Assembly (NCBI GenBank): GCA_030689595.1
Contig: JAUYHP010000008.1
Span: 32,589-96,588 of the forward strand
DNA length: 64,000 bases
From: a bacterium
GTDB taxonomy: Bacteria; Patescibacteriota; Minisyncoccia; UBA6257; WO2-44-18
Direction: 5' to 3'
The position numbers were made by a program, and so were the translations under genes. The first letter of the stretch is position 1. Each line of letters starts with the position of its first letter. The notes below the pieces were generated by a model. It was not told the DNA's origin. It saw nothing but the letters and a program-made list of their open reading frames with translations, and searched no databases. Of the stretch, positions 14,545-50,668 are shown in pieces.

Positions 14545-15264
14545 ATGAGAAATCGATTTATGTTAGACAGTAGAGGGTTCCTGACAGTGCCGATGGCTAT
14601 TATTCTGGCCGCACTCATTATTGCGGGGGCGGTAATCTATGCTACGGGTCCTTCGGATAGAGCTAATAATGACCAGCCCGCAAACACGGCCAATGTTTTA
14701 GACAATTTAGCCCCCGTAGACGCCAATGATCACATTTGGGGTAGTCGGGATGCTGCAGTTAAAGTAGTTGAGTTTTCTGATACCGAATGTCCGTTTTGCA
14801 AAAGATTTCATTATACGATGAAGAATATAATGGCCGAATATGCCGAAAGTGGTCAAGTGGCTTGGGTTTATCGGCATTTCCCGATAGATAGTTTACACCC
14901 CAAGGCACGAAAAGAATCTCAGGCATTAGAATGTGCGGCTGATCTAGGCGGAAATGAAAAGTTCTGGCTTTATTTAGATCGCTTATTCGAGGTCACGCCA
15001 TCAAATAATGGGTTAGATTTGAACGAGCTTCCAAACATAGCTAGCTATGTTGGTCTGGATAGATCTAAATTTGAAGCCTGTCTTGGTAGCTCAAAGTTTT
15101 TAGATGTCATACAAGCCGATTATGATGAGGCCGTTAAGTCAGGTGCTCGTGGCACGCCATTTAGCGTTGTTGTCGCGGCCGATGGTCAAAAATTTAGCTT
15201 AGATGGAGCCCAGCCTTATTCGGCCGTTAAGCAGATAATTGATGCGGCACTAAGTGCTAAATAA
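14545..15264 (+). CDS. DsbA-like thiol:disulfide oxidoreductase, membrane-anchored
   Basis: N-terminal TM helix plus a CPFC thioredoxin-fold active site (TECPFCKRF). Confidence 0.65.
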   Translation: MRNRFMLDSRGFLTVPMAIILAALIIAGAVIYATGPSDRANNDQPANTANVLDNLAPVDANDHIWGSRDAAVKVVEFSDTECPFCKRFHYTMKNIMAEYAESGQVAWVYRHFPIDSLHPKARKESQALECAADLGGNEKFWLYLDRLFEVTPSNNGLDLNELPNIASYVGLDRSKFEACLGSSKFLDVIQADYDEAVKSGARGTPFSVVVAADGQKFSLDGAQPYSAVKQIIDAALSAK

Positions 15265-27890: not shown

Positions 27891-27930
27891 GCCCCCACCG
27901 AGATAATTTCGGCTGGGGGCGTTTTTATTT
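27891..27930 (+). terminator. Rho-independent terminator
   Basis: GCCCCCA...TGGGGGC stem then GTTTTTATTT. Confidence 0.6.
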
Positions 27931-28362
27931 AAACCTTATCGAAATTTCTAAGGCGTTATCATGCTCGGTCAAACCGGATGGGTTATCCTTTTGCAAAATT
28001 AACGAACCGCGCTCACCATAAATGGGTTGCTCAAATTCTAATATCGCCTCAAATGGGACAAAGTCTTCAGTCATCCATGTTGAATTTTCATCGTTAGGAT
28101 CAAGTTGGGCCTCTGCATAATGTTGGGCTATGATTTTTCCGTCCCAATCTGTGAGCACGACAGGAAAAGTTGCTTCAAAAAACCAATAACCCCTAGCTTC
28201 GCCGGTAATTTTTAACGGGCTTTTAATGGCCTCATTTGGCAAAGGAGATGTGAGTCGTATTAAGTTCGGTAGCTCGGCAGACATAGTTGAATCATCTAGA
28301 TTTAAATAATATACAACACCAACTAGCAAAGCCAACACAATTAATATATATAAATATTTCAT
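27925..28362 (-). CDS. Secreted Gmad2 Ig-like domain protein
   Basis: Signal peptide, then ITGEARGYWFFEATFPVVL...WMTEDFVPFEAILEF...LILQKDNPSGL, which matches the Gmad2 pattern. Confidence 0.5.
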   Translation of the reverse strand: MKYLYILIVLALLVGVVYYLNLDDSTMSAELPNLIRLTSPLPNEAIKSPLKITGEARGYWFFEATFPVVLTDWDGKIIAQHYAEAQLDPNDENSTWMTEDFVPFEAILEFEQPIYGERGSLILQKDNPSGLTEHDNALEISIRFK

Positions 28363-28385: not shown

Positions 28386-29042
28386 TTACGGCCTAACCAC
28401 AACCAATCTTTTTTTCCAGACCTTCATAAAGTCATCAATAGATATTTTGCCGCCATCAGATGATCCAGCTGGGTCATTGTAATAAACAGTGCCGTCGTCT
28501 ATCCCAGTAATGACTGCCAAATGGGGGATAGGATTAGCTGGATCAAAAGTATAATGAACTGACGCAATAACCGGCCCCTCATTAATTATTGCCACAAAGC
28601 GCTCAAGAGCATCTTGATCGCTTAAGCCAGAAAAATCATAAGTATTGCCCTCAAGGCCATGGTTTTTTGCCAGTAAAGCCAGACCGTTATGAGACCAGCC
28701 TGCGTTATAAATATAAGCTCCGGCCTTGATGCCTTCATCAAGCAAACTATTTACCGATACAGTATTTAGATCATAAAAATCTATAATCATAGCCAAGCTA
28801 GCTATACCACAGCTGAGTTTTTTCCATTCCGGATCGCTGATATCATTAAATTGCGAATAAAAGGGGACATCTGGGATGTTGATTGCCGGCCTAGTAGCTA
28901 TGGCCGCCTCGGACGCGCTAGTATTCAAAATGAAGCCCGAAACAGCAATTAGCGCTATCATAAACAGCCATATCAAAAAAAGCATATATTGTTTCATCGG
29001 GCCAAATATGCCAGATGTTGTGGGTGATTGCAAACCCGTCAA
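28386..29042 (-). CDS. Peptidase C39-like (papain-fold cysteine peptidase) secreted protein
   Basis: TM/signal segment and a CGIASLAMIIDFY catalytic-Cys context, with a His further downstream. Confidence 0.5.
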   Translation of the reverse strand: MTGLQSPTTSGIFGPMKQYMLFLIWLFMIALIAVSGFILNTSASEAAIATRPAINIPDVPFYSQFNDISDPEWKKLSCGIASLAMIIDFYDLNTVSVNSLLDEGIKAGAYIYNAGWSHNGLALLAKNHGLEGNTYDFSGLSDQDALERFVAIINEGPVIASVHYTFDPANPIPHLAVITGIDDGTVYYNDPAGSSDGGKISIDDFMKVWKKRLVVVRP

Positions 29043-29084: not shown

Positions 29085-29969
29085 TCAATCCTGCACAATA
29101 ACTTTGGTGCCGACATCAGCCCAGGCATAAAGCTCCTTAGCTTTTGATGGAATAAGATTTACGCAGCCATTGGAGGAGGGCTTACCAAAATTTTGGTGCC
29201 AATATGTGCCGTGTATTACCGCGCCTTGACTAGTGAAATATAAATTCCAAGGCACGCCCGGAAGATCGTAATATTTTTCACTTATACCAGGTATCGGACC
29301 TTGCATATAACGACTGGGTGTTTTTTTAAAAACTGTAAAAATACCTCGTGGCGTAGGCGTGAGCTCTAGTCCCGTCGAGATGGATTCCTCTATAAATAGC
29401 TCATCACCATCATAAGCATAAAGTTTTTGCTCCAATCGGCTCACTATTATTTTTTTATTAGTTTTATCTGATCTAGCCGTTAAATTTTGCACACCTTCAT
29501 CAAGTAGAGCGATGACATAATCAGCTGCCACATACCAATCATCTTCTATGCGTTCAGGGTAGCGAATCCATTCATCAAAAACTATTTTATACCAAACTCG
29601 ACCGTCTCGCTCAACTTGGCCGCCAACTTTCAAGACAGCACCGATTCTCAATCGGGCTATTTTTTCATAATCTTCTCCCGGCCCAGATCTTACATTCAAA
29701 CAAGTGCCCACAAAATAAGCATCGCAACTATCAACCACCTCGATATATTCAAAAAGGACTTTTTCAATCGGAAGGATAATTTCCTCTCCACCACTTTCGG
29801 AGGCAATAACCACCGCCTCCTTACTCTGTAAATATGGATTAGTAATTGGTGAATTGGCTATAAACCAATTGGCTTGCAATATCACTATCGCCAACACTAT
29901 CACTAGCGCAATAAGTGCTCCAACCAATATCCCTACAACTTTTTTATGATACCCCAACGGCACGTGCAT
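29085..29969 (-). CDS. L,D-transpeptidase (YkuD) with N-terminal TM helix and SH3-like region
   Basis: HGTYWHQNFGKPSSNGCVNL matches the catalytic His/Cys signature. Confidence 0.75.
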   Translation of the reverse strand: MHVPLGYHKKVVGILVGALIALVIVLAIVILQANWFIANSPITNPYLQSKEAVVIASESGGEEIILPIEKVLFEYIEVVDSCDAYFVGTCLNVRSGPGEDYEKIARLRIGAVLKVGGQVERDGRVWYKIVFDEWIRYPERIEDDWYVAADYVIALLDEGVQNLTARSDKTNKKIIVSRLEQKLYAYDGDELFIEESISTGLELTPTPRGIFTVFKKTPSRYMQGPIPGISEKYYDLPGVPWNLYFTSQGAVIHGTYWHQNFGKPSSNGCVNLIPSKAKELYAWADVGTKVIVQD

Positions 29970-35934: not shown

Positions 35935-36090
35935 CGAACGATTCCAAGGAGCAAAGGTTCCCAAAGGATTCAGAAACCAAGGTCCTAAGGATCGAAGCTA
36001 CTTGCGGACGGCCGCGAACCGTTCGCCTTCCACCCAGTCGCGTCGCGTTGCGACGCTCCGAAATTTGGCGAAAACGGCGATTATATTTTT

Positions 36091-36164
36091 TGGCTGCCGG
36101 GCAGGGACTCGAACCCCGATACCACGCTCCAGAGGCGTGTGTCCTACCGTTAGACGACCCGGCA
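36091..36164 (-). tRNA. tRNA-Gln (anticodon CUG)
   Basis: The minus-strand sequence TGCCGGGTCGTCTAACGGTAGGACACACGCCTCTGGAGCGTGGTATCGGGGTTCGAGTCCCTGCCCGGCAGCCA folds into a 7-bp acceptor stem, a GGTTCGAGTCC T-arm and a CUCUGGA anticodon loop. CCA is encoded. Confidence 0.8.
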
Positions 36165-36226
36165 TCATTAGACTCAATCTTAATGTTATAATACAATTAT
36201 GGCTAGAAGCAAAAGCAAATAATTTT

Positions 36227-36841
36227 ATGCAAAAAGACTATCAACCAGAAAAATTAAAAATTGATAAAGATCTTCCAGGCTTCAGCCTTAAGGGCATCAA
36301 GGAGCATTTTAAACTTTATGAGGGTTATGTCAAAAAAACTAACGAGATCCAAAAGAAAATTGAAGATGCCGATAAGTCAGAGGCCAATGCTGTTTACAGT
36401 TATATCGGCGAATTGAAGCGCGAAGAAGTCTTTGCCATAAACGGCATTAAACTTCATGAAATTTATTTTGATCACCTTGGCGGCGATGGAAAGCCAAGTG
36501 GTGAGCTAGTAAAAATGATCGAAAGAGATTTTGGCTCGGTTGATAAATGGCGCGAAGATATGATCGCCACCGGCTTAAGTGCTCGTGGTTGGGCTATAAT
36601 GGCCTACGACCTTAAAGATAGCCAGCTCCATAATTATGGAGCTGATGCCCAAAACATTGGCGCAGTCTGGGGCGCTATTCCTATTATAGCCCTGGATGTT
36701 TATGAGCACGCTTATTTTATGGATTATGGAACCGATCGAAAATCTTATGTTAATGCCTTTTTTGAAAATCTGGATTGGAGCGTCGCCAATGCCATGATGA
36801 CTAAATATGTCACGCCATGGGAAAAGACAAAGAACCAGTAA
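36227..36841 (+). CDS. sodA: Fe/Mn superoxide dismutase
   Basis: LDVYEHAYFMDYG (the D-x-W/Y-E-H-A-Y motif) and the conserved His ligands (EHF..., LHEIYF). The start is taken at MQKDY; the longer upstream frame overlaps the tRNA. Confidence 0.8.
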   Translation: MQKDYQPEKLKIDKDLPGFSLKGIKEHFKLYEGYVKKTNEIQKKIEDADKSEANAVYSYIGELKREEVFAINGIKLHEIYFDHLGGDGKPSGELVKMIERDFGSVDKWREDMIATGLSARGWAIMAYDLKDSQLHNYGADAQNIGAVWGAIPIIALDVYEHAYFMDYGTDRKSYVNAFFENLDWSVANAMMTKYVTPWEKTKNQ

Positions 36842-38070
36842 AAAATTCGGAGCGAGAGGATGTTGAAACCGAAAAGGATCTACTACAGGGCGGTGAAGCT
36901 TCGATAATAAAATTGATAGATGCCTTAATCGAAAGCGCCTATACGGCTCGCGCTTCTGATATTCATATCGATCCGGAACAGGACCAAGTCCGAGTGCGCT
37001 TCAGAGTTGACGGAACCTTGCATGACACTTTTGTCTTTTCAAAAGACTCCCATTCAGAAATCATCACTCGCCTGAAAGTACTTTCTGGCTTACGCACTGA
37101 CGAACATCAAATGGCCCAAGATGGACGTTTTAAAATTTCCGTCAGTGACGGTCTTTTTGTAGATGTACGCCTTTCCATAGCTCCAACCTATTACGGGGAA
37201 AATGCCGTGATGAGATTATTGGCACAAAAATCTGAAACAGAATTTACTTTAGAGGCCTTGGCATTTTCCGAAAAAAATCAAAAAATAATTCAAAAATCAA
37301 TTAAAAAACCTTATGGCATGATTTTGGCCACTGGGCCCACCGGCTCTGGCAAAACCACCACTCTGTACACGATCATAAAAATGTTGAACAAGCCAGAAAC
37401 TTCCATCATCACCATAGAAGATCCCATTGAATATTCGGTTGATGGCGTTGAGCAAATTCAAGTTAACACACAAACAGGGCTGACCTTCGTCAGCGGTCTA
37501 CGCTCGATCTTGCGACAAGATCCTAATATCATCATGGTCGGTGAAATACGCGATCAAGAAACAGCTGGCATTGCCATTAATGCCGCTTTGACAGGTCATC
37601 TTTTGCTTTCAACCCTACACACCAACGACGCCGCCACAACATTGCCGCGGTTGGTAGATATGAAGGTAGAGCCGTTTTTAATTGCATCCACCGTAAATAT
37701 TGCCATGGGCCAGAGATTGCTACGCCGTGTTTGCCAAGATTGTAAAATCGAAAAAAAGATTACAGCCACCGACATTAAGAGTTTGTCCACAGCGTTACGC
37801 CCAGGAGCAATAAATGAAGGTGCTATTTTCTATGCTGGCGAAGGTTGTGATGTGTGTGACCACACCGGCTACAAAGGACGCATTGGAGTACATGAGGTTA
37901 TGGAGGTTACGGATGCTATCAGAGAAGCTATAATGAAAAGAGCCGACGCCGCCATGATTCAAGAATTAGCAATCAAAGAAGGCATGGTGCCTATGCTTGA
38001 AGACGCGCTTCAAAAAGCATTGGCCGGGCTAACCACGATCGAAGAAATTTTACGCATTATACATGAATAA
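36817..38070 (+). CDS. pilB: Type IV pilus/T2SS assembly ATPase (GspE/PilB family), minimal form
   Basis: Walker A ATGPTGSGKTTTLY, Asp/His boxes and a C-terminal tetracysteine (CQDC...CDVC). Only about 417 aa. Confidence 0.85.
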   Translation: MGKDKEPVKNSEREDVETEKDLLQGGEASIIKLIDALIESAYTARASDIHIDPEQDQVRVRFRVDGTLHDTFVFSKDSHSEIITRLKVLSGLRTDEHQMAQDGRFKISVSDGLFVDVRLSIAPTYYGENAVMRLLAQKSETEFTLEALAFSEKNQKIIQKSIKKPYGMILATGPTGSGKTTTLYTIIKMLNKPETSIITIEDPIEYSVDGVEQIQVNTQTGLTFVSGLRSILRQDPNIIMVGEIRDQETAGIAINAALTGHLLLSTLHTNDAATTLPRLVDMKVEPFLIASTVNIAMGQRLLRRVCQDCKIEKKITATDIKSLSTALRPGAINEGAIFYAGEGCDVCDHTGYKGRIGVHEVMEVTDAIREAIMKRADAAMIQELAIKEGMVPMLEDALQKALAGLTTIEEILRIIHE

Positions 38071-39133
38071 TTTTTTAAAGAACTTATCTCTTAGCGTTTC
38101 TTTGCAAGAGAAAATCATTTTTGCTAAACATCTGGCTATCATGATAAAAGCTGGCATGCCACTCTTGGATGCAATAAACATGTTGCAACAACAAACTAGG
38201 TCGCGCTCCATGTCTAAAATTTTAGAATCAGTAGTCAAAGATGTCAGCAACGGCCAATTTCTTTCAAAAAGTCTAGAAAAATATCAATCGGTTTTCGGCG
38301 ATTTGTTTATTCAACTTATCAAAGTTGGCGAAACCGGTGGCATACTGTCAGAAAATTTAGTTTATTTGGCTGACGAGCTTAAAAAGAAAGCCGAACTTCG
38401 TCGCAAGGTGGTGGGCGCATTAATTTATCCATCAATTATTTTATTAGCCACCCTGGGTATAGCCGGTTTTTTGACCATATATATATTCCCCAAAATAATC
38501 CCGGTATTTTCTAGTCTTAAGGCGGAATTACCGATCACCACCAAAATATTGATAAGCATCAGCAATCTGTTAACCCAACATGGTGGGCTCGCTATGCTGG
38601 CCTTGTTAATAATAGTAATTGTCATATGGTTTTTGCTCAAAGTTCGTACCATTCGTTTTTATTGGCATCGAGTATTGCTGTCGCTACCAATTGTTGGCAA
38701 AATAGCTCGGAGTGTTAATATGGCCAACTTTTCCAGAGCCTTAGGATTGCTGTTAAAAAGTGATGTAAAAATCGTTAACGCTATTAATATCACTGCTGGC
38801 ACATTGTCTAATCTGGTTTATCGCGATGAACTAGCTAAATCAAGCTCAAATATAGAGAAGGGTGAATATATATCCAAATATTTAATGACTCGCGGAGACC
38901 TTTTCCCAATTATGTTTGCTAACATGATTGCGGTAGGGGAGCGCACAGGAAATTTAAGTGAAACGCTGTTATATTTGGCCGAATTTTATGAAAACAGCGT
39001 GGACGATCTCACTAAAAACTTATCAAACGTTTTAGAGCCAGTGCTAATGGTTGCTATGGGTGTCATCGTCGGATTCGTCGCGATTTCTATCATTACCCCG
39101 ATCTATGGTGTCACCCAAACCCTTAGCCGCTAA
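38063..39133 (+). CDS. pilC: Type IV pilus platform protein (GspF/PilC family)
   Basis: Two T2SSF repeats and three TM segments. Confidence 0.85.
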   Translation: MNNFLKNLSLSVSLQEKIIFAKHLAIMIKAGMPLLDAINMLQQQTRSRSMSKILESVVKDVSNGQFLSKSLEKYQSVFGDLFIQLIKVGETGGILSENLVYLADELKKKAELRRKVVGALIYPSIILLATLGIAGFLTIYIFPKIIPVFSSLKAELPITTKILISISNLLTQHGGLAMLALLIIVIVIWFLLKVRTIRFYWHRVLLSLPIVGKIARSVNMANFSRALGLLLKSDVKIVNAINITAGTLSNLVYRDELAKSSSNIEKGEYISKYLMTRGDLFPIMFANMIAVGERTGNLSETLLYLAEFYENSVDDLTKNLSNVLEPVLMVAMGVIVGFVAISIITPIYGVTQTLSR

Positions 39134-39560
39134 AAAAGCCCTCGGCTTCACGATGGTGGAGTTGGCAGTTGTGATTGGAGTGCTAGCATTATTAGCTGCT
39201 ATTTTTTTACCCATAGGTATTGATTTTTATATTAGCTATCAGTTTCGAGCAGAATCCAATATGTTGGTGTCGCTACTAGAACAATCACGCAGTTTGGCCA
39301 TGACTAACAACGGCGAATCTTATTGGGGTCTTTATGTCGATGCCAATGATTTTGTTGTTTTTCAGGGGTTAAACTATGCTAGCCGCGATCAATCAGCTGA
39401 CAAAATCTTTGCGCGAACTGAAAATATAGGCATAAGCGGCCCGTCTGAATTAGTATTCGCCAATTTGTCTGGCACAACGACGCCTGCAACTTTCGACATC
39501 GTCTCAGATGAAAAATCGGCCACGGTCGGAGTGAACAGCCAGGGCGTTATAAGTTATTAA
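39105..39560 (+). CDS. Type IV prepilin / pseudopilin
   Basis: Class III signal KKALG|FTMVELAVVIGVLALLAAIF (G-F-T-x-x-E). The start, chosen at MVSPKP, is uncertain and overlaps the end of pilC. Confidence 0.6.
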   Translation: MVSPKPLAAKKALGFTMVELAVVIGVLALLAAIFLPIGIDFYISYQFRAESNMLVSLLEQSRSLAMTNNGESYWGLYVDANDFVVFQGLNYASRDQSADKIFARTENIGISGPSELVFANLSGTTTPATFDIVSDEKSATVGVNSQGVISY

Positions 39561-39564
39561 ATAT

Positions 39565-40971
39565 ATGAGTAGCAAATCCGGGCAGTCGATAATTGAATTA
39601 TTAATAGCCATCGGTGTTTTTGTGTTGATGGCCTCGGCGGCTTTGTTGTTATTCTTTGGCGGGCAATCGCTTTCGATCGATAGCAGCAACGCACAACAGG
39701 CGCTAGATTATGCGTCCGAGGGTCAAGAAGCGGTACGTTCAATTGCTCACCGTGATTGGGACGGATTGGTTAACGGCGAATATGGATTAATTTATCAAAA
39801 TGGCCAATGGGAATTCTCAGGCTCGTCTAACATCAAAGAGCTCTTTACGCGCACCATCTTTATAGATGACGTTGACCCAAACACTAAGCGCGCCAGCACT
39901 ACTGTGACTTGGCAGCTTAGTCCAGCGCACATACAAAACATTGAATTAGTACAATATCTAACTCAATGGGAAAATCCATTGGTGGGTGGTTGTAAAACCG
40001 ACCCAATTTCTGGGGACTGGTATAATCCGGTAGTCTTGGGCTCAATCAATCTAGGCCCAGGCAATGAAGGGACCGATGTAGTCGCCGACCTGCCCTATGT
40101 ATATATGAGCGCCGAAGCTTCGGCGGCGAATAAGCCAGATGTTTTTGTTGTTGACGTTAGTGACGTATCTAATCCTCAAGTTATACGATCGGTTGATATA
40201 GGAGCCAGTGGAGTTAATTCCATTTATCTTAATGGAGATTTTTTGTACGCCGCTTCCGGTAATAATGGTCGTGAGTTTATTGTTTTTGATGTTAGTAATC
40301 CACCCAACATGATTGATGTCGCCAGCATTAATCTATCTGGGCAAGAAGATGCTATTTCTATACGAGGCGTGGAAGATACTGTATATGTTGGCAGAGTAAG
40401 TGGCTCTGATAAAGAGTTGGCAGTTATTGATGTTTCGGATCCGCTTAACCCATCTGTGGCAACCTCATTTGAAATCGGCGGCGATGTTAATAGCTTGATG
40501 ACTACCAGCCATAAACTGTATGTTACGACCGATATTCCCGATAAAGACGTGTGGATTTATGATATTGAAAATCCCAATGCGCCCGTATTGTTGGATATAT
40601 ATGATTTGCCCGTGGGTGGCGAAATTATTGGCATTGGCTTGCGATTGCCGGGCGATATACTAGCTGGCGGCACTAATGAGCTTTGGGTTTTGGGGGCGAC
40701 CACCACTGACCAAATTTATGTTCGTAGTTCGCTCGAAATCGGTGGCGCTAGCAATGACGTGGCTTGCGTGGCCGACAACTTGGCGTTTTTGGCCACCAAT
40801 AATAGCACTAAGGAGTTTTTAATCGTTGATATTTCTAATCCTGATGATATTAAAGAGGTGGCTTCGTTTAATTTCCCGCAGATCGGCACCGGTATGGATT
40901 TTGCCGAAAATAAAGTGTTTTTATCGGTACGCAGTAATGACGCCTTGAGAATTATCGGCCCGGGGCCATAG
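39565..40971 (+). CDS. Prepilin N-terminus fused to a large LVIVD-repeat beta-propeller domain (candidate pilus-associated adhesin)
   Basis: N-terminal SGQSIIELLIAIGVFVLMA prepilin-like helix. After it come repeated blocks (VVDVSDVSNPQV, IVFDVSNPPNM, AVIDVSDPLNPSV, WIYDIENPNAPV, LIVDISNPDDI) that match the LVIVD repeat. Confidence 0.6.
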   Translation: MSSKSGQSIIELLIAIGVFVLMASAALLLFFGGQSLSIDSSNAQQALDYASEGQEAVRSIAHRDWDGLVNGEYGLIYQNGQWEFSGSSNIKELFTRTIFIDDVDPNTKRASTTVTWQLSPAHIQNIELVQYLTQWENPLVGGCKTDPISGDWYNPVVLGSINLGPGNEGTDVVADLPYVYMSAEASAANKPDVFVVDVSDVSNPQVIRSVDIGASGVNSIYLNGDFLYAASGNNGREFIVFDVSNPPNMIDVASINLSGQEDAISIRGVEDTVYVGRVSGSDKELAVIDVSDPLNPSVATSFEIGGDVNSLMTTSHKLYVTTDIPDKDVWIYDIENPNAPVLLDIYDLPVGGEIIGIGLRLPGDILAGGTNELWVLGATTTDQIYVRSSLEIGGASNDVACVADNLAFLATNNSTKEFLIVDISNPDDIKEVASFNFPQIGTGMDFAENKVFLSVRSNDALRIIGPGP

Positions 40972-41110
40972 GGCTTATATATGCCTGACAAGCCGTGGCT
41001 ATCCATGCTACAATAGTTCGCAGTTGTTTGAAAGTGTTTTCCCCAAATCTTCAAGGAGGGGATTTTTTTATTAGGAGTTGGTGCGCCGAAAAAGCTTATC
41101 CACAGAGGTG

Positions 41111-41139
41111 TTGACAAAAACTGGCCAACTAGTATAAAA
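41111..41139 (+). promoter_or_regulatory. Sigma70-like promoter upstream of tuf
   Basis: TTGACA, then a 17-bp spacer, then ATAAAA(T). A second candidate (TGACAA-17-TACAAT) lies at about 40986-41014. Confidence 0.5.
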
Positions 41140-41209
41140 TCTGATATATTGTCTTTACGACGAAAGGTTCGAAAAAACAAAAATAATAATAAATAATTTT
41201 TAAATAAAC

Positions 41210-50176: not shown

Positions 50177-50668
50177 ATGATCAGAAGACCAATTCACAAG
50201 AAAGTGGACGACTTTAAAGATAAGGTACTAGATATCAGGAGAGTTACTAGAGTTGTTAAGGGTGGTAAGCGCATGCGCTTTAGGACGGCCATAGTTGTTG
50301 GTGACGGGCGTGGGCGAGTCGGCGTTGGCTTAGGCAAAGGGGCTGATGTCGCTCAATCTATCGCGAAAGCCAAGCTAGATGCCAAAAAACACGTTCTTTT
50401 TATAGATCTAAAAGATCAAACCATCCCTCACGAAGTAGAAGCCAAATTTAGTGCTGCCAGAGTACTGCTTAAACCGGCCAAGCCCGGCCATGGCCTAAGA
50501 GCCGGTGGGCCCGTTCGTGTTATTTTGTCGCTACTCGGTGTTAGTGATGCTACTGCTAAAATATTGGGCCGCACACCTAACAAGCTAACCAATGCATTGG
50601 CGACCATCGAAGCCTTGAAGAAGTTAAAAACGCGCAATATCACTAAAACCAATCAGGCAACCAAGTAA
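50177..50668 (+). CDS. rpsE: Ribosomal protein uS5
   Basis: VTRVVKGGKRMRFRTAIVVGDGRGRVGVGLGKG. Confidence 0.9.
   Translation: MIRRPIHKKVDDFKDKVLDIRRVTRVVKGGKRMRFRTAIVVGDGRGRVGVGLGKGADVAQSIAKAKLDAKKHVLFIDLKDQTIPHEVEAKFSAARVLLKPAKPGHGLRAGGPVRVILSLLGVSDATAKILGRTPNKLTNALATIEALKKLKTRNITKTNQATK

Follow-up and report, generated by a model that had tools for sequence, protein, structure and literature searches.

A Patescibacteria gene behind pilB and pilC encodes a candidate modular minor pilin with a predicted LVIVD propeller

Does a protein that begins like a prepilin, continues in LVIVD-type repeats and is encoded among pilus assembly genes of a Patescibacterium display a binding module on a type IV pilus? 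The open reading frame that raises this question occupies positions 39565-40971 on the + strand of the 64,000-nucleotide stretch of DNA analysed here (the window), starts with ATG and encodes 468 amino acids. A sequence-only reading of the window, which cited residues 5-33 (SGQSIIELLIAIGVFVLMASAALLLFFGG), had described its product as a prepilin-like N-terminus fused to a LVIVD-repeat β-propeller and had proposed it as a pilus-displayed adhesin.

The N-terminus, MSSKSG|QSIIE, presents Gly at -1, Gln at +1 and Glu at +5. The leader MSSKSG (6 residues, 39565..39582, + strand) is short and basic, a prepilin peptidase site is predicted after its final Gly, and the mature N-terminus QSIIE opens the α1 helix (residues 7-63, 39583..39753, + strand; placed from the sequence, the model and the homologues). 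QSIIE is followed by LLIAIGVFVLMASAALLLFF, and hence E+5 precedes a run of about 20 hydrophobic residues. Of the 120 best homologues, 100 show the G-x4-E arrangement with its hydrophobic run, and the remaining 20 are mostly N-terminally truncated gene calls or proteins with Ala at -1. In the species-representative genomes, the family had G-1 in 70/77 sequences and Ala there in 7/77, E+5 in 72/77 and Asp in 4/77, and Q+1 in 67/77. Strom and Lory are said to have found in 1991 that the prepilin peptidase requires G-1, with Ala partly tolerated, and that many residues are tolerated at +1; the seven Ala sequences are consistent with this tolerance. The class-III-signal-like N-terminus recognized in the sequence-only reading was thus borne out with a predicted cleavage site after Gly6, and the loss of a conserved G-1/E+5 signature, which that reading had named as evidence against itself, was not observed, since the signature is kept in about 90% of the homologues. 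The Pfam N_methyl model (PF07963) scored 15.7-17.7 bits on the protein, below its cut-off of 21.2, so that the prepilin assignment rests on the motif, on its conservation and on the gene context. TIGR02532 did not match the protein in an NCBIfam search. N_methyl was matched at E <= 1 by 18 of 24 homologous N-terminal modules (best E 1.1e-5), and a PDB sequence search with the N-terminal profile of the family returned a Geobacter pilin N-terminus as its top match.

The structure predicted with AlphaFold2 from a 102-sequence alignment had a pLDDT of 91.9, against only 34 in a single-sequence run. In this model the pilin helix spans residues 9-63 (55 residues, pLDDT 82-96) and is followed by a β-sheet head (residues 64-133, 39754..39963, + strand; strands 71-133, pLDDT 88-97), which amounts to a predicted pilin fold with an α1 helix of about 53 residues and a β-sheet packed on its C-terminal half. 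Among the homologues, one residue of the head, W116, never varies, and K108 hardly does. A linker of 17 residues (134-150, 39964..40014, + strand), the stretch of lowest confidence (pLDDT 65-78), leads into the LVIVD domain (residues 151-468 and the stop codon, 40015..40971, + strand), which the model folds into a closed β-propeller of 28 strands and seven blades (residues 151-467, about 320 aa). The predicted blade count, the pilin module and the Pfam matches described below agree with the architecture proposed from the sequence; the tandem LVIVD-type repeats stood, and the length of more than 400 aa ascribed to them did not, the repeat region being about 320 aa in the model. Structure searches matched only generic WD40-like propellers, so that the fold gives no clue to a ligand, and a PDB sequence search with the full-length profile returned only weak WD40 matches.

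As for the repeats themselves, Pfam LVIVD (PF08309) scored 45.1 bits over three stretches (gathering cut-off 20.2, E 6e-12) and Pfam Beta_propel 22.0 bits against a cut-off of 22.4. The junction motif D[VI][SE]..NP occurs five times, at residues 197, 242, 289, 333 and 422, with a spacing of about 45 aa, and five copies were reached in 0 of 2000 shuffles of the protein. The choice-of-anchor B model (TIGR04312) was rejected (17.7 bits; cut-off 100). In the family, blades 6, 7 and 1, which lie beside the linker, form a conserved sector, and blades 3-5 vary and show indels and changes of loop length; the faces of the blades were assigned from topology. The invariant polar residues of the family are K190, D192, E417 and R456-S457-N458-D459, and the C-terminal motif VRSNDALRII is specific to this pilin family. 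Furthermore, Cys143 in the linker (39991-39993, + strand) and Cys401 in blade 6 (40765-40767, + strand) covary perfectly among the homologues: both are present in 57 sequences, neither in 45, and a single one in 0. This co-occurrence implies an extracytoplasmic disulfide, a reading supported by the membrane-anchored DsbA-like protein encoded at 14545-15264, and the linkers of the homologues that do not have the pair are Gly-rich. With a pI of 4.05 and a charge of -30 the propeller is strongly acidic, as it is in every family member (median pI 4.13, maximum 4.84). Comparison with a 72% relative gave a dN/dS of about 0.08, which indicates that the gene is under purifying selection, although the operon ends after it in this lineage.

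The gene lies directly 3′ of three genes for type IV filament machinery. A PilB/GspE-type pilus assembly ATPase (417 aa, 36817..38070, + strand) was identified with 401.8 bits to Pfam T2SSE; it is N-terminally short, covering positions 159-562 of the PilB model, and its NCBIfam scores for GspE (494 bits) and PilB (478 bits) are both under the equivalog cut-offs. The PilC/GspF platform protein (356 aa, 38063..39133, + strand), whose gene shares its first 8 nt with the end of pilB, had 174.7 bits to Pfam T2SSF in two stretches and NCBIfam scores of 276 bits for GspF and 252 bits for PilC. A six-frame scan for the class III motif then located minor pilin 1 (mp1; 151 aa, 39105..39560, + strand), a GspH/FimU-like protein with the leader MVSPKPLAAKKALG (...KKALG; G-1 at 39144-39146) and the mature end FTMVE. 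Its Pfam scores (N_methyl 19.1 bits, GspH 16.5 bits) are under the cut-offs; the gene call is identical in an independent assembly, and in the mp1 family G-1 and E+5 are each kept in 74/75. The four genes are tightly coupled by overlaps or 4-nt gaps, and the position claimed for the propeller gene in the sequence-only reading, directly after pilB-pilC and a conventional minor pilin, is therefore confirmed. In the window lineage the operon ends here and tuf comes next. The third and fourth minor pilins and the major pilin known from relatives (mp3, mp4 and major, see below) were not found in the window by tblastn and do not adjoin the propeller gene in this lineage; a search for mp3 homologues gave 26 matches, none on the 183,932-bp contig that holds the window, and a saturated search for major pilin homologues gave 5,746, of which the best 120 were compared. 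Neither a second ATPase or PilT nor PilM/N/O was detected in the 64-kb window, and none of the 10 membrane or unassigned window ORFs scanned against Pfam matched Peptidase_A24, the prepilin peptidase family.

The same gene slot is constant in 82 Patescibacteria species genomes, in the order PilB, PilC, minor pilin, propeller pilin, minor pilin, PilX-like pilin without E5, and major pilin. The full order was seen in 40 of the 82 loci and a partial version of it in nearly all the others; PilB lies upstream of the propeller gene in 72/83 related loci, and PilC is present in 76/83. The PilX-like mp4 carries T, I, V or L at +5 and scored 25.0 bits to PilX_N (cut-off 25.5), and the major pilin reads G|FTLIE in 74/74. 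Gln at +1 is near-universal in the propeller pilin family, whereas the four other operon pilins have Phe there. No prepilin peptidase, PilT or PilM/N/O was found within 10 kb of the operon in the relatives, and a multi-TM ORF with GxGDxK, a motif that may be too strict, was found within 10 kb in 0/83 loci. At least 107 species genomes contain a member of the family, and two of the homologues have been named PilV by JGI.

The succession of four small pilin genes resembles that of GspH-I-J-K and FimU-PilV-PilW-PilX: the first operon pilin has a weak likeness to GspH, and the last resembles PilX_N and, like GspK/PilX, has no E5. The genes run colinear with fimU-pilV-pilW-pilX, and by this order the propeller protein would fall in the PilV/GspI slot. 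Its pilin head had no significant sequence or profile match to PilV or GspI; those described so far are small proteins with no extra domain, whereas this protein carries a propeller. A seven-bladed β-propeller at the tip together with four core minor pilins, as we propose here, is the arrangement of PilY1/PilC in the T4aP of Pseudomonas, Neisseria and Myxococcus. Membership of the PilY1/PilC family itself (PF05567 / IPR008707) was rejected, because no Neisseria_PilC match was obtained at E <= 1, the protein brings a class III signal of its own, and PilY1 was absent from the top fold matches.

The architecture is already described for the modular type IV pilins, among which N_methyl followed by LVIVD (IPR012902-IPR013211, the latter being the LVIVD repeat) has been recorded (Raynaud et al. 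2021, PNAS, PMC8179133). Their Dataset S1 holds about 30 proteins, one of them a Falkowbacteria protein of 860 aa, with IPR012902 and then 1-13 IPR013211 motifs; the study only counts this architecture, with the motif given as "of unknown function", and has no structure, operon position or family analysis for it (PMC8179133). In common with these pilins the protein has a pilin module (residues 1-133), a short linker (134-150), a non-pilin effector module (the propeller, 151-468) and a predicted exposure at the tip. In S. sanguinis, modular pilins act as adhesins at the tip (PMC8179133), and there the characterised PilB (vWA) and PilC (lectin) bear modules unrelated to the LVIVD propeller. LVIVD-repeat cell-surface proteins (Pfam PF08309) have been described (Adindla et al. 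2004, PMC2447325), and the archaeal and bacterial members, like the choice-of-anchor B proteins, share the repeat type and the predicted propeller; unlike the protein studied here, they have ordinary signal peptides or other anchors, and the giant LVIVD proteins do not have the C-terminal RSND motif.

A parallel in function is PilX2 of the thin T4P-2 pilus of the Saccharibacterium Nanosynbacter lyticus TM7x (Grossman et al., bioRxiv 2024 / ISME J 2025; PMC11623550, PMC12206443), a proposed tip adhesin whose deletion approximately halves host binding while filaments remain. Both are Patescibacteria minor pilins with a C-terminal seven-bladed β-propeller, encoded among minor pilins. The propeller of PilX2 is made of RCC1 repeats, whereas the LVIVD protein had no RCC1 match at E <= 1; PilX2 has no predicted PilD signal, in contrast to the clean and conserved G-1/E+5 signal found here; and the LVIVD family belongs to Parcubacteria-type lineages and to the second minor-pilin slot directly behind PilB-PilC. 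Compared through its published description, PilX2 is a functional analogue only, and the features that define its type are not those of the LVIVD protein.

We favour, as the probable reading, a modular minor type IV pilin that shows a binding propeller, most likely at the pilus tip. A prepilin peptidase would remove the 6-residue leader after Gly6, so that the mature protein would begin with QSIIE, and the hydrophobic α1 helix and the small β-sheet head would let it enter the pilus like other pilins. Together with three other minor pilins, namely the GspH/FimU-like pilin encoded upstream and, in relatives, a third pilin and the PilX-like pilin without E5 encoded downstream, it would form a priming complex that ends up at the tip; the protein keeps E5 and the PilX-like pilin does not, so its place is probably just below the tip-most subunit. 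From there, the 17-residue linker, apparently stapled by the Cys143-Cys401 disulfide in about half of the family, this protein included, would bear the acidic propeller projecting from the tip. We propose that the propeller docks through its conserved sector (blades 6, 7 and 1) against the pilin module or the partner pilins, and that its variable sector (blades 3-5) meets the ligand, for which a structure on the surface of a partner or host cell is the likeliest candidate. Instead of a docking surface, the invariant polar residues (K190, D192, E417, R456-D459) could make up a ligand site. A role as an adhesin in host attachment is suggested by analogy with TM7x PilX2 (PMC12206443) and S. sanguinis PilB (PMC8179133).

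Several other functions would fit parts of these data. The propeller might mainly be a PilY1-like assembly or regulatory element, one that would prime the pilus or keep it stable, prevent its retraction or sense load, and not a specific adhesin. PilY1 with minor pilins reportedly primes T4aP in Myxococcus (the work of Treuner-Lange in 2020), and in favour of this reading are the core minor-pilin slot in a conserved operon and the family-wide conservation of blades 6, 7 and 1 and of the RSND motif, a conservation that an internal machine contact would leave. We regard this as unlikely, however, since deletion of TM7x PilX2 lowered host binding and left the filaments, the variation of blades 3-5 in sequence and loop length fits a diversifying outward face better, and no sequence relation to PilY1 was found. 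The invariant polar residues, specific to the family, would also suit the active or metal site of an enzyme carried on a pilin, such as a hydrolase or lyase acting on the cell wall of a partner; modular pilins with peptidase modules exist (PMC8179133), and the fold matches include the Sphingobium phosphotriesterase (5hrm/5ioj) and virginiamycin B lyase (2z2n). The enzymatic propellers scored no better than the non-enzymatic ones, at identities of about 8-13%, and the protein had no sequence match to any enzyme family, which leaves an enzyme very improbable.

It is also improbable, if a trace less so than an enzyme, that the protein serves a competence-type pilus as its DNA receptor, in the manner of Thermus ComZ, and captures extracellular DNA for these nucleotide-scavenging bacteria: the strong acidity of the propeller throughout the family argues against DNA binding, the score of YncE was not above those of dozens of unrelated WD40 propellers, and the TM7x propeller-pilin system makes no contribution to competence. 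Least probable of all is an ordinary surface protein with an uncleaved signal anchor that never enters a pilus. The sub-threshold N_methyl match, a Gln at +1 in place of the usual Phe or Met, and the failure to find PilD among the 10 scanned window ORFs would be expected of such a protein, but a G-1/E+5 pair at constant spacing before the hydrophobic helix, an invariant gene position among pilin genes and a modelled 55-residue helix with a pilin head, not a simple 20-residue anchor, would not.

The propeller-pilin concept is already known, through the genetics of the unrelated PilX2 of TM7x and through the catalogued N_methyl-LVIVD architecture, and is less new than the sequence-only reading had assumed. 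What the present analysis adds is the constant operon slot, a high-confidence model, a covarying predicted disulfide, the acidic surface, and the division of the propeller into a conserved and a variable sector; together these turn a catalogue entry into testable hypotheses. We know of no Parcubacteria-type Patescibacterium with a known host, and the family offers a well-defined candidate contact module of the pili of these bacteria, with domain boundaries that permit the propeller to be expressed alone. As a tentative generalisation, which we think possible without expecting it to hold, the core minor pilin in the PilV slot of most Parcubacteria-type Patescibacteria may carry the tip propeller, as a one-polypeptide substitute for a minor pilin plus PilY1, with blades 6-7-1 locking into the tip complex and blades 3-5 setting the partner; the family could then serve such lineages as a host-range marker that can be read from sequence. 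In addition, the near-universal Gln at +1 might denote that the N-terminus has a chemistry of its own, with pyroglutamate in place of N-methylation as one example, which would fix the place of this pilin in the assembly order.

The propeller pilin is encoded by a 468-aa ORF (window 39565-40971, + strand; N-terminus MSSKSGQSIIELLIAIGVFVLMASAALLLFFGG), the last of four tightly packed pilus genes. It is preceded by the genes of a PilB-type ATPase (36817-38070), a PilC-type platform protein (38063-39133) and a 151-aa minor pilin, mp1 (39105-39560, …KKALG↓FTMVE), and starts 4 nt past the stop of the latter. A six-frame scan detected only two class III signals in the window, those of the 151-aa pilin and of the propeller pilin. 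With Pfam, the LVIVD repeats scored 45.1 bits (gathering score 20.2), the Beta_propel match was near threshold, and the N_methyl match was sub-threshold (15.7 bits vs 21.2). The junction motif D[VI][SE]..NP was found five times (residues 197, 242, 289, 333 and 422), a number reached by none of 2000 shuffles of the protein. Hence, the LVIVD-repeat ORF proposed in the sequence-only reading is real, and its placement after PilB, PilC and a pilin was confirmed. The PilB-type ATPase has only 417 aa (420-474 aa in relatives), and because its alignments begin at position 159 of the PilB model (159-562) and position 90 of GspE (90-485), it is without the usual N-terminal domain.

The structure was modeled with an alignment of 102 homologues (pLDDT 91.9, pTM 0.72); a single-sequence prediction reached only pLDDT 34. 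In the model, one long helix, the pilin alpha1 (residues 9-63), is followed by a β-sheet head (71-133), a linker of lower confidence (134-150) and a propeller of 28 strands, i.e., seven four-stranded blades (151-467). According to the model, the propeller is thus appended C-terminally to a full pilin module rather than to a simple membrane anchor, and the repeats, earlier said to fill more than 400 aa, are confined to the propeller.

The homologue search yielded 317 proteins, nearly all of them from Patescibacteria MAGs, 450-490 aa long and with full-length query coverage. When the prepilin signature was scored in the best 120 of the 317, G-x4-E followed by a hydrophobic run was present in 100, with Gln at +1 in 95; those without the motif were mostly N-terminally truncated gene calls, or had Ala at -1 or Asp at +5. 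In species-representative genomes the family carries Gly at -1 in 70/77 members (Ala in 7) and Glu at +5 in 72/77 (Asp in 4), so that the signature on which the sequence-only reading had staked its proposal is kept in homologues. Pfam N_methyl was matched by 18 of 24 N-terminal modules of the family, and the best match of the N-terminal profile among PDB sequences was a Geobacter pilin. By a rule attributed to Strom and Lory in 1991, prepilin peptidases reportedly require Gly at -1, partly tolerate Ala and accept many +1 residues, and the family's pattern fits this rule. The predicted first mature residue, Gln7 (window 39583-39585), is Gln in 67/77 members across the related loci (L001-L085); at this position the four remaining pilins carry Phe, except for the PilX-like mp4 with Tyr. 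Some archaeal pilins typically start with Gln, and here it might cyclise to pyroglutamate in place of N-methylation.

Scanning one genome per species revealed relatives in 107 genomes; 80 loci were fetched and their ORFs classified by BLAST. All relatives are Patescibacteria MAGs (names include Harrison-, Uhr-, Jorgensen-, Wolfe-, Brenner-, Lipton-, Falkow- and Colwellbacteria, and Paceibacterota), some with automated taxon labels of Saccharibacteria or Gammaproteobacteria. The order PilB-PilC-mp1-propeller pilin-mp3-mp4-major pilin was observed in 40/82 loci, and partial versions in nearly all others. Gly at -1, Phe at +1 and Glu at +5 occur in mp1 (74/75, 63 and 74/75, respectively), mp3 (58/60, 53 and 60/60) and the major pilin (74/74, 70 and 74/74), and mp4 has Gly at -1 in 61/71, Tyr at +1 in 33, and T, I, V or L, never Glu, at +5. 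The match of mp4 to PilX_N reached 25.0 bits (cut-off 25.5), and mp1 is weakly GspH-like. This set is colinear with fimU-pilV-pilW-pilX and gspH-I-J-K, from which we infer that the propeller pilin occupies the PilV/GspI slot; the assignment relies on gene order because the pilin head gave no significant match in comparisons of the N-terminal module. In established tip-complex models the outermost position belongs to the subunit that lacks E5; since the propeller pilin keeps E5, it would sit just beneath that subunit.

At one related locus (L008, 2767-5384, - strand) two tandem proteins of 426-427 aa carry class III-like N-termini (…ISFTLLELL…) and C-terminally resemble LamG/concanavalin-type lectin domains; if lectin-bearing, they would have the modular-pilin architecture that is most frequent in Dataset S1 of Raynaud et al. 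2021. A Jorgensenbacteria homologue of 604 aa (P0085) has a receiver domain (PF00072) ahead of its pilin-propeller part (residues 136-604), hence its annotation as a response regulator; this may reflect genes joined during gene calling, not a genuine fusion.

Both in the window and in a 72%-identical relative (L005/L006), the propeller pilin gene closes the operon, and tuf and the S10 ribosomal operon come next (window 40972-41209); no mp3, mp4 or major pilin was found within the 64 kb. Neither mp3 nor mp4 was detected downstream in five of the 82 loci: three of these stop at contig ends, L051 retains the major pilin, and in L006 alone enough sequence follows, with tuf in place of the pilins. 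The dN/dS relative to L006 was ~0.08, only an upper-level indication as dS is saturated, and the gene is nonetheless under purifying selection.

Cys143 (linker) and Cys401 (blade 6) occur together or not at all: 57 sequences have both, 45 have neither and none has just one. This strong covariation points to a disulfide, and hence to a probable extracytoplasmic location. Members without the pair have Gly-rich linkers, and the window also encodes a DsbA-like protein with a membrane anchor (14545-15264). Conservation is highest in blades 1, 6 and 7, specifically in the A-B and C-D loops (0.81-0.94), and lowest in blades 3-5, where loop length varies. A C-terminal R[ST]ND motif was found in 41/52 single-propeller pilin representatives, 0/61 giant LVIVD proteins and 1/31 multi-propeller pilins; the conserved sector is therefore family-specific, not a generic LVIVD trait. 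We propose that the conserved sector, which lies beside the linker, serves for docking and that blades 3-5 point outward to the ligand; alternatively, the invariant polar cluster may be a ligand or metal site.

The most likely reading is a modular core minor pilin with a tip-borne binding propeller. The protein would be cleaved after Gly6, join the three other minor pilins in a priming complex on PilC and so reach the pilus tip; there its propeller would bind, most likely, a surface component of a partner cell. The analysis establishes the architecture, its conservation, the operon context, the selection and the cysteine covariation, from which cleavage, tip location and adhesion are predicted; as far as computation reaches, the earlier proposal of a pilin-anchored propeller as a candidate host-attachment factor is supported. 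That the propeller instead serves as an assembly or regulatory element like PilY1 is unlikely; the protein does not belong to the PilY1 family (no Neisseria_PilC match at E ≤ 1).

A role as DNA receptor is distinctly improbable, since the uniformly acidic propeller (pI 4.05 and net charge -30 here; family median pI 4.13, maximum 4.84) argues against direct DNA binding. A pilin-borne enzyme is very unlikely, and an uncleaved anchor protein is hardly to be expected given the conserved signature.

The proposed tip-borne binding pilin has known counterparts. Modular pilins were defined by Raynaud et al. 2021 (PMC8179133), whose Dataset S1 includes ~30 proteins that combine IPR012902 with 1-13 subsequent copies of IPR013211, a motif to which the authors assign no known function. 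A database look-up identified IPR013211 as the LVIVD repeat, and therefore the pilin-LVIVD architecture was already catalogued, though uncharacterised; a literature search found no paper describing this family. The TM7x minor pilin PilX2 bears a seven-bladed RCC1 propeller, and its deletion approximately halves host binding while filaments stay (Grossman et al., PMC11623550; ISME J 2025, PMC12206443). The protein studied here would work like these pilins but is not of the PilX2 family: it has no RCC1 match at E ≤ 1 and a canonical signal, whereas no signal is predicted in PilX2. An LVIVD-propeller profile search of 1.84 billion representatives gave 61,722 matches with E ≤ 1e-3, of which 12,656 pass E ≤ 1e-30, among them (P0121-P0264) giant multi-propeller proteins of 2,000-6,901 aa with 8-20 matched stretches. 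Among the best 150, ~31 proteins of ~650-2,000 aa, long enough for two or more propellers, carry a class III signal. The protein is a new, well-delimited modular propeller-bearing minor pilin, and through it one can approach how partners are recognised by Parcubacteria-type lineages, for which no host is known.

Elsewhere in the window, a tRNA-Gln (CTG; 36091-36164, - strand), followed by a strong terminator-like hairpin (35935-35905, - strand), lies inside a long mechanical ORF (36002-36841); therefore, the Fe/Mn superoxide dismutase gene starts downstream of the tRNA (~203 aa, as in L005). The genes that, from N-terminal sequences, we take to be S5 (50177-50668) and L15 (50674-51075) are separated by 5 nt, and no L30 gene intervenes. 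Members of the Candidate Phyla Radiation are known to lack L30, and the arrangement fits a Patescibacteria origin. Three apparent cell-envelope proteins are also encoded in the window: a membrane-anchored Peptidase_C39-like cysteine protease (28386-29042, - strand) and, adjoining it, a YkuD L,D-transpeptidase with an SH3 domain (29085-29969, - strand) and a Gmad2 Ig-like protein (27925-28362).
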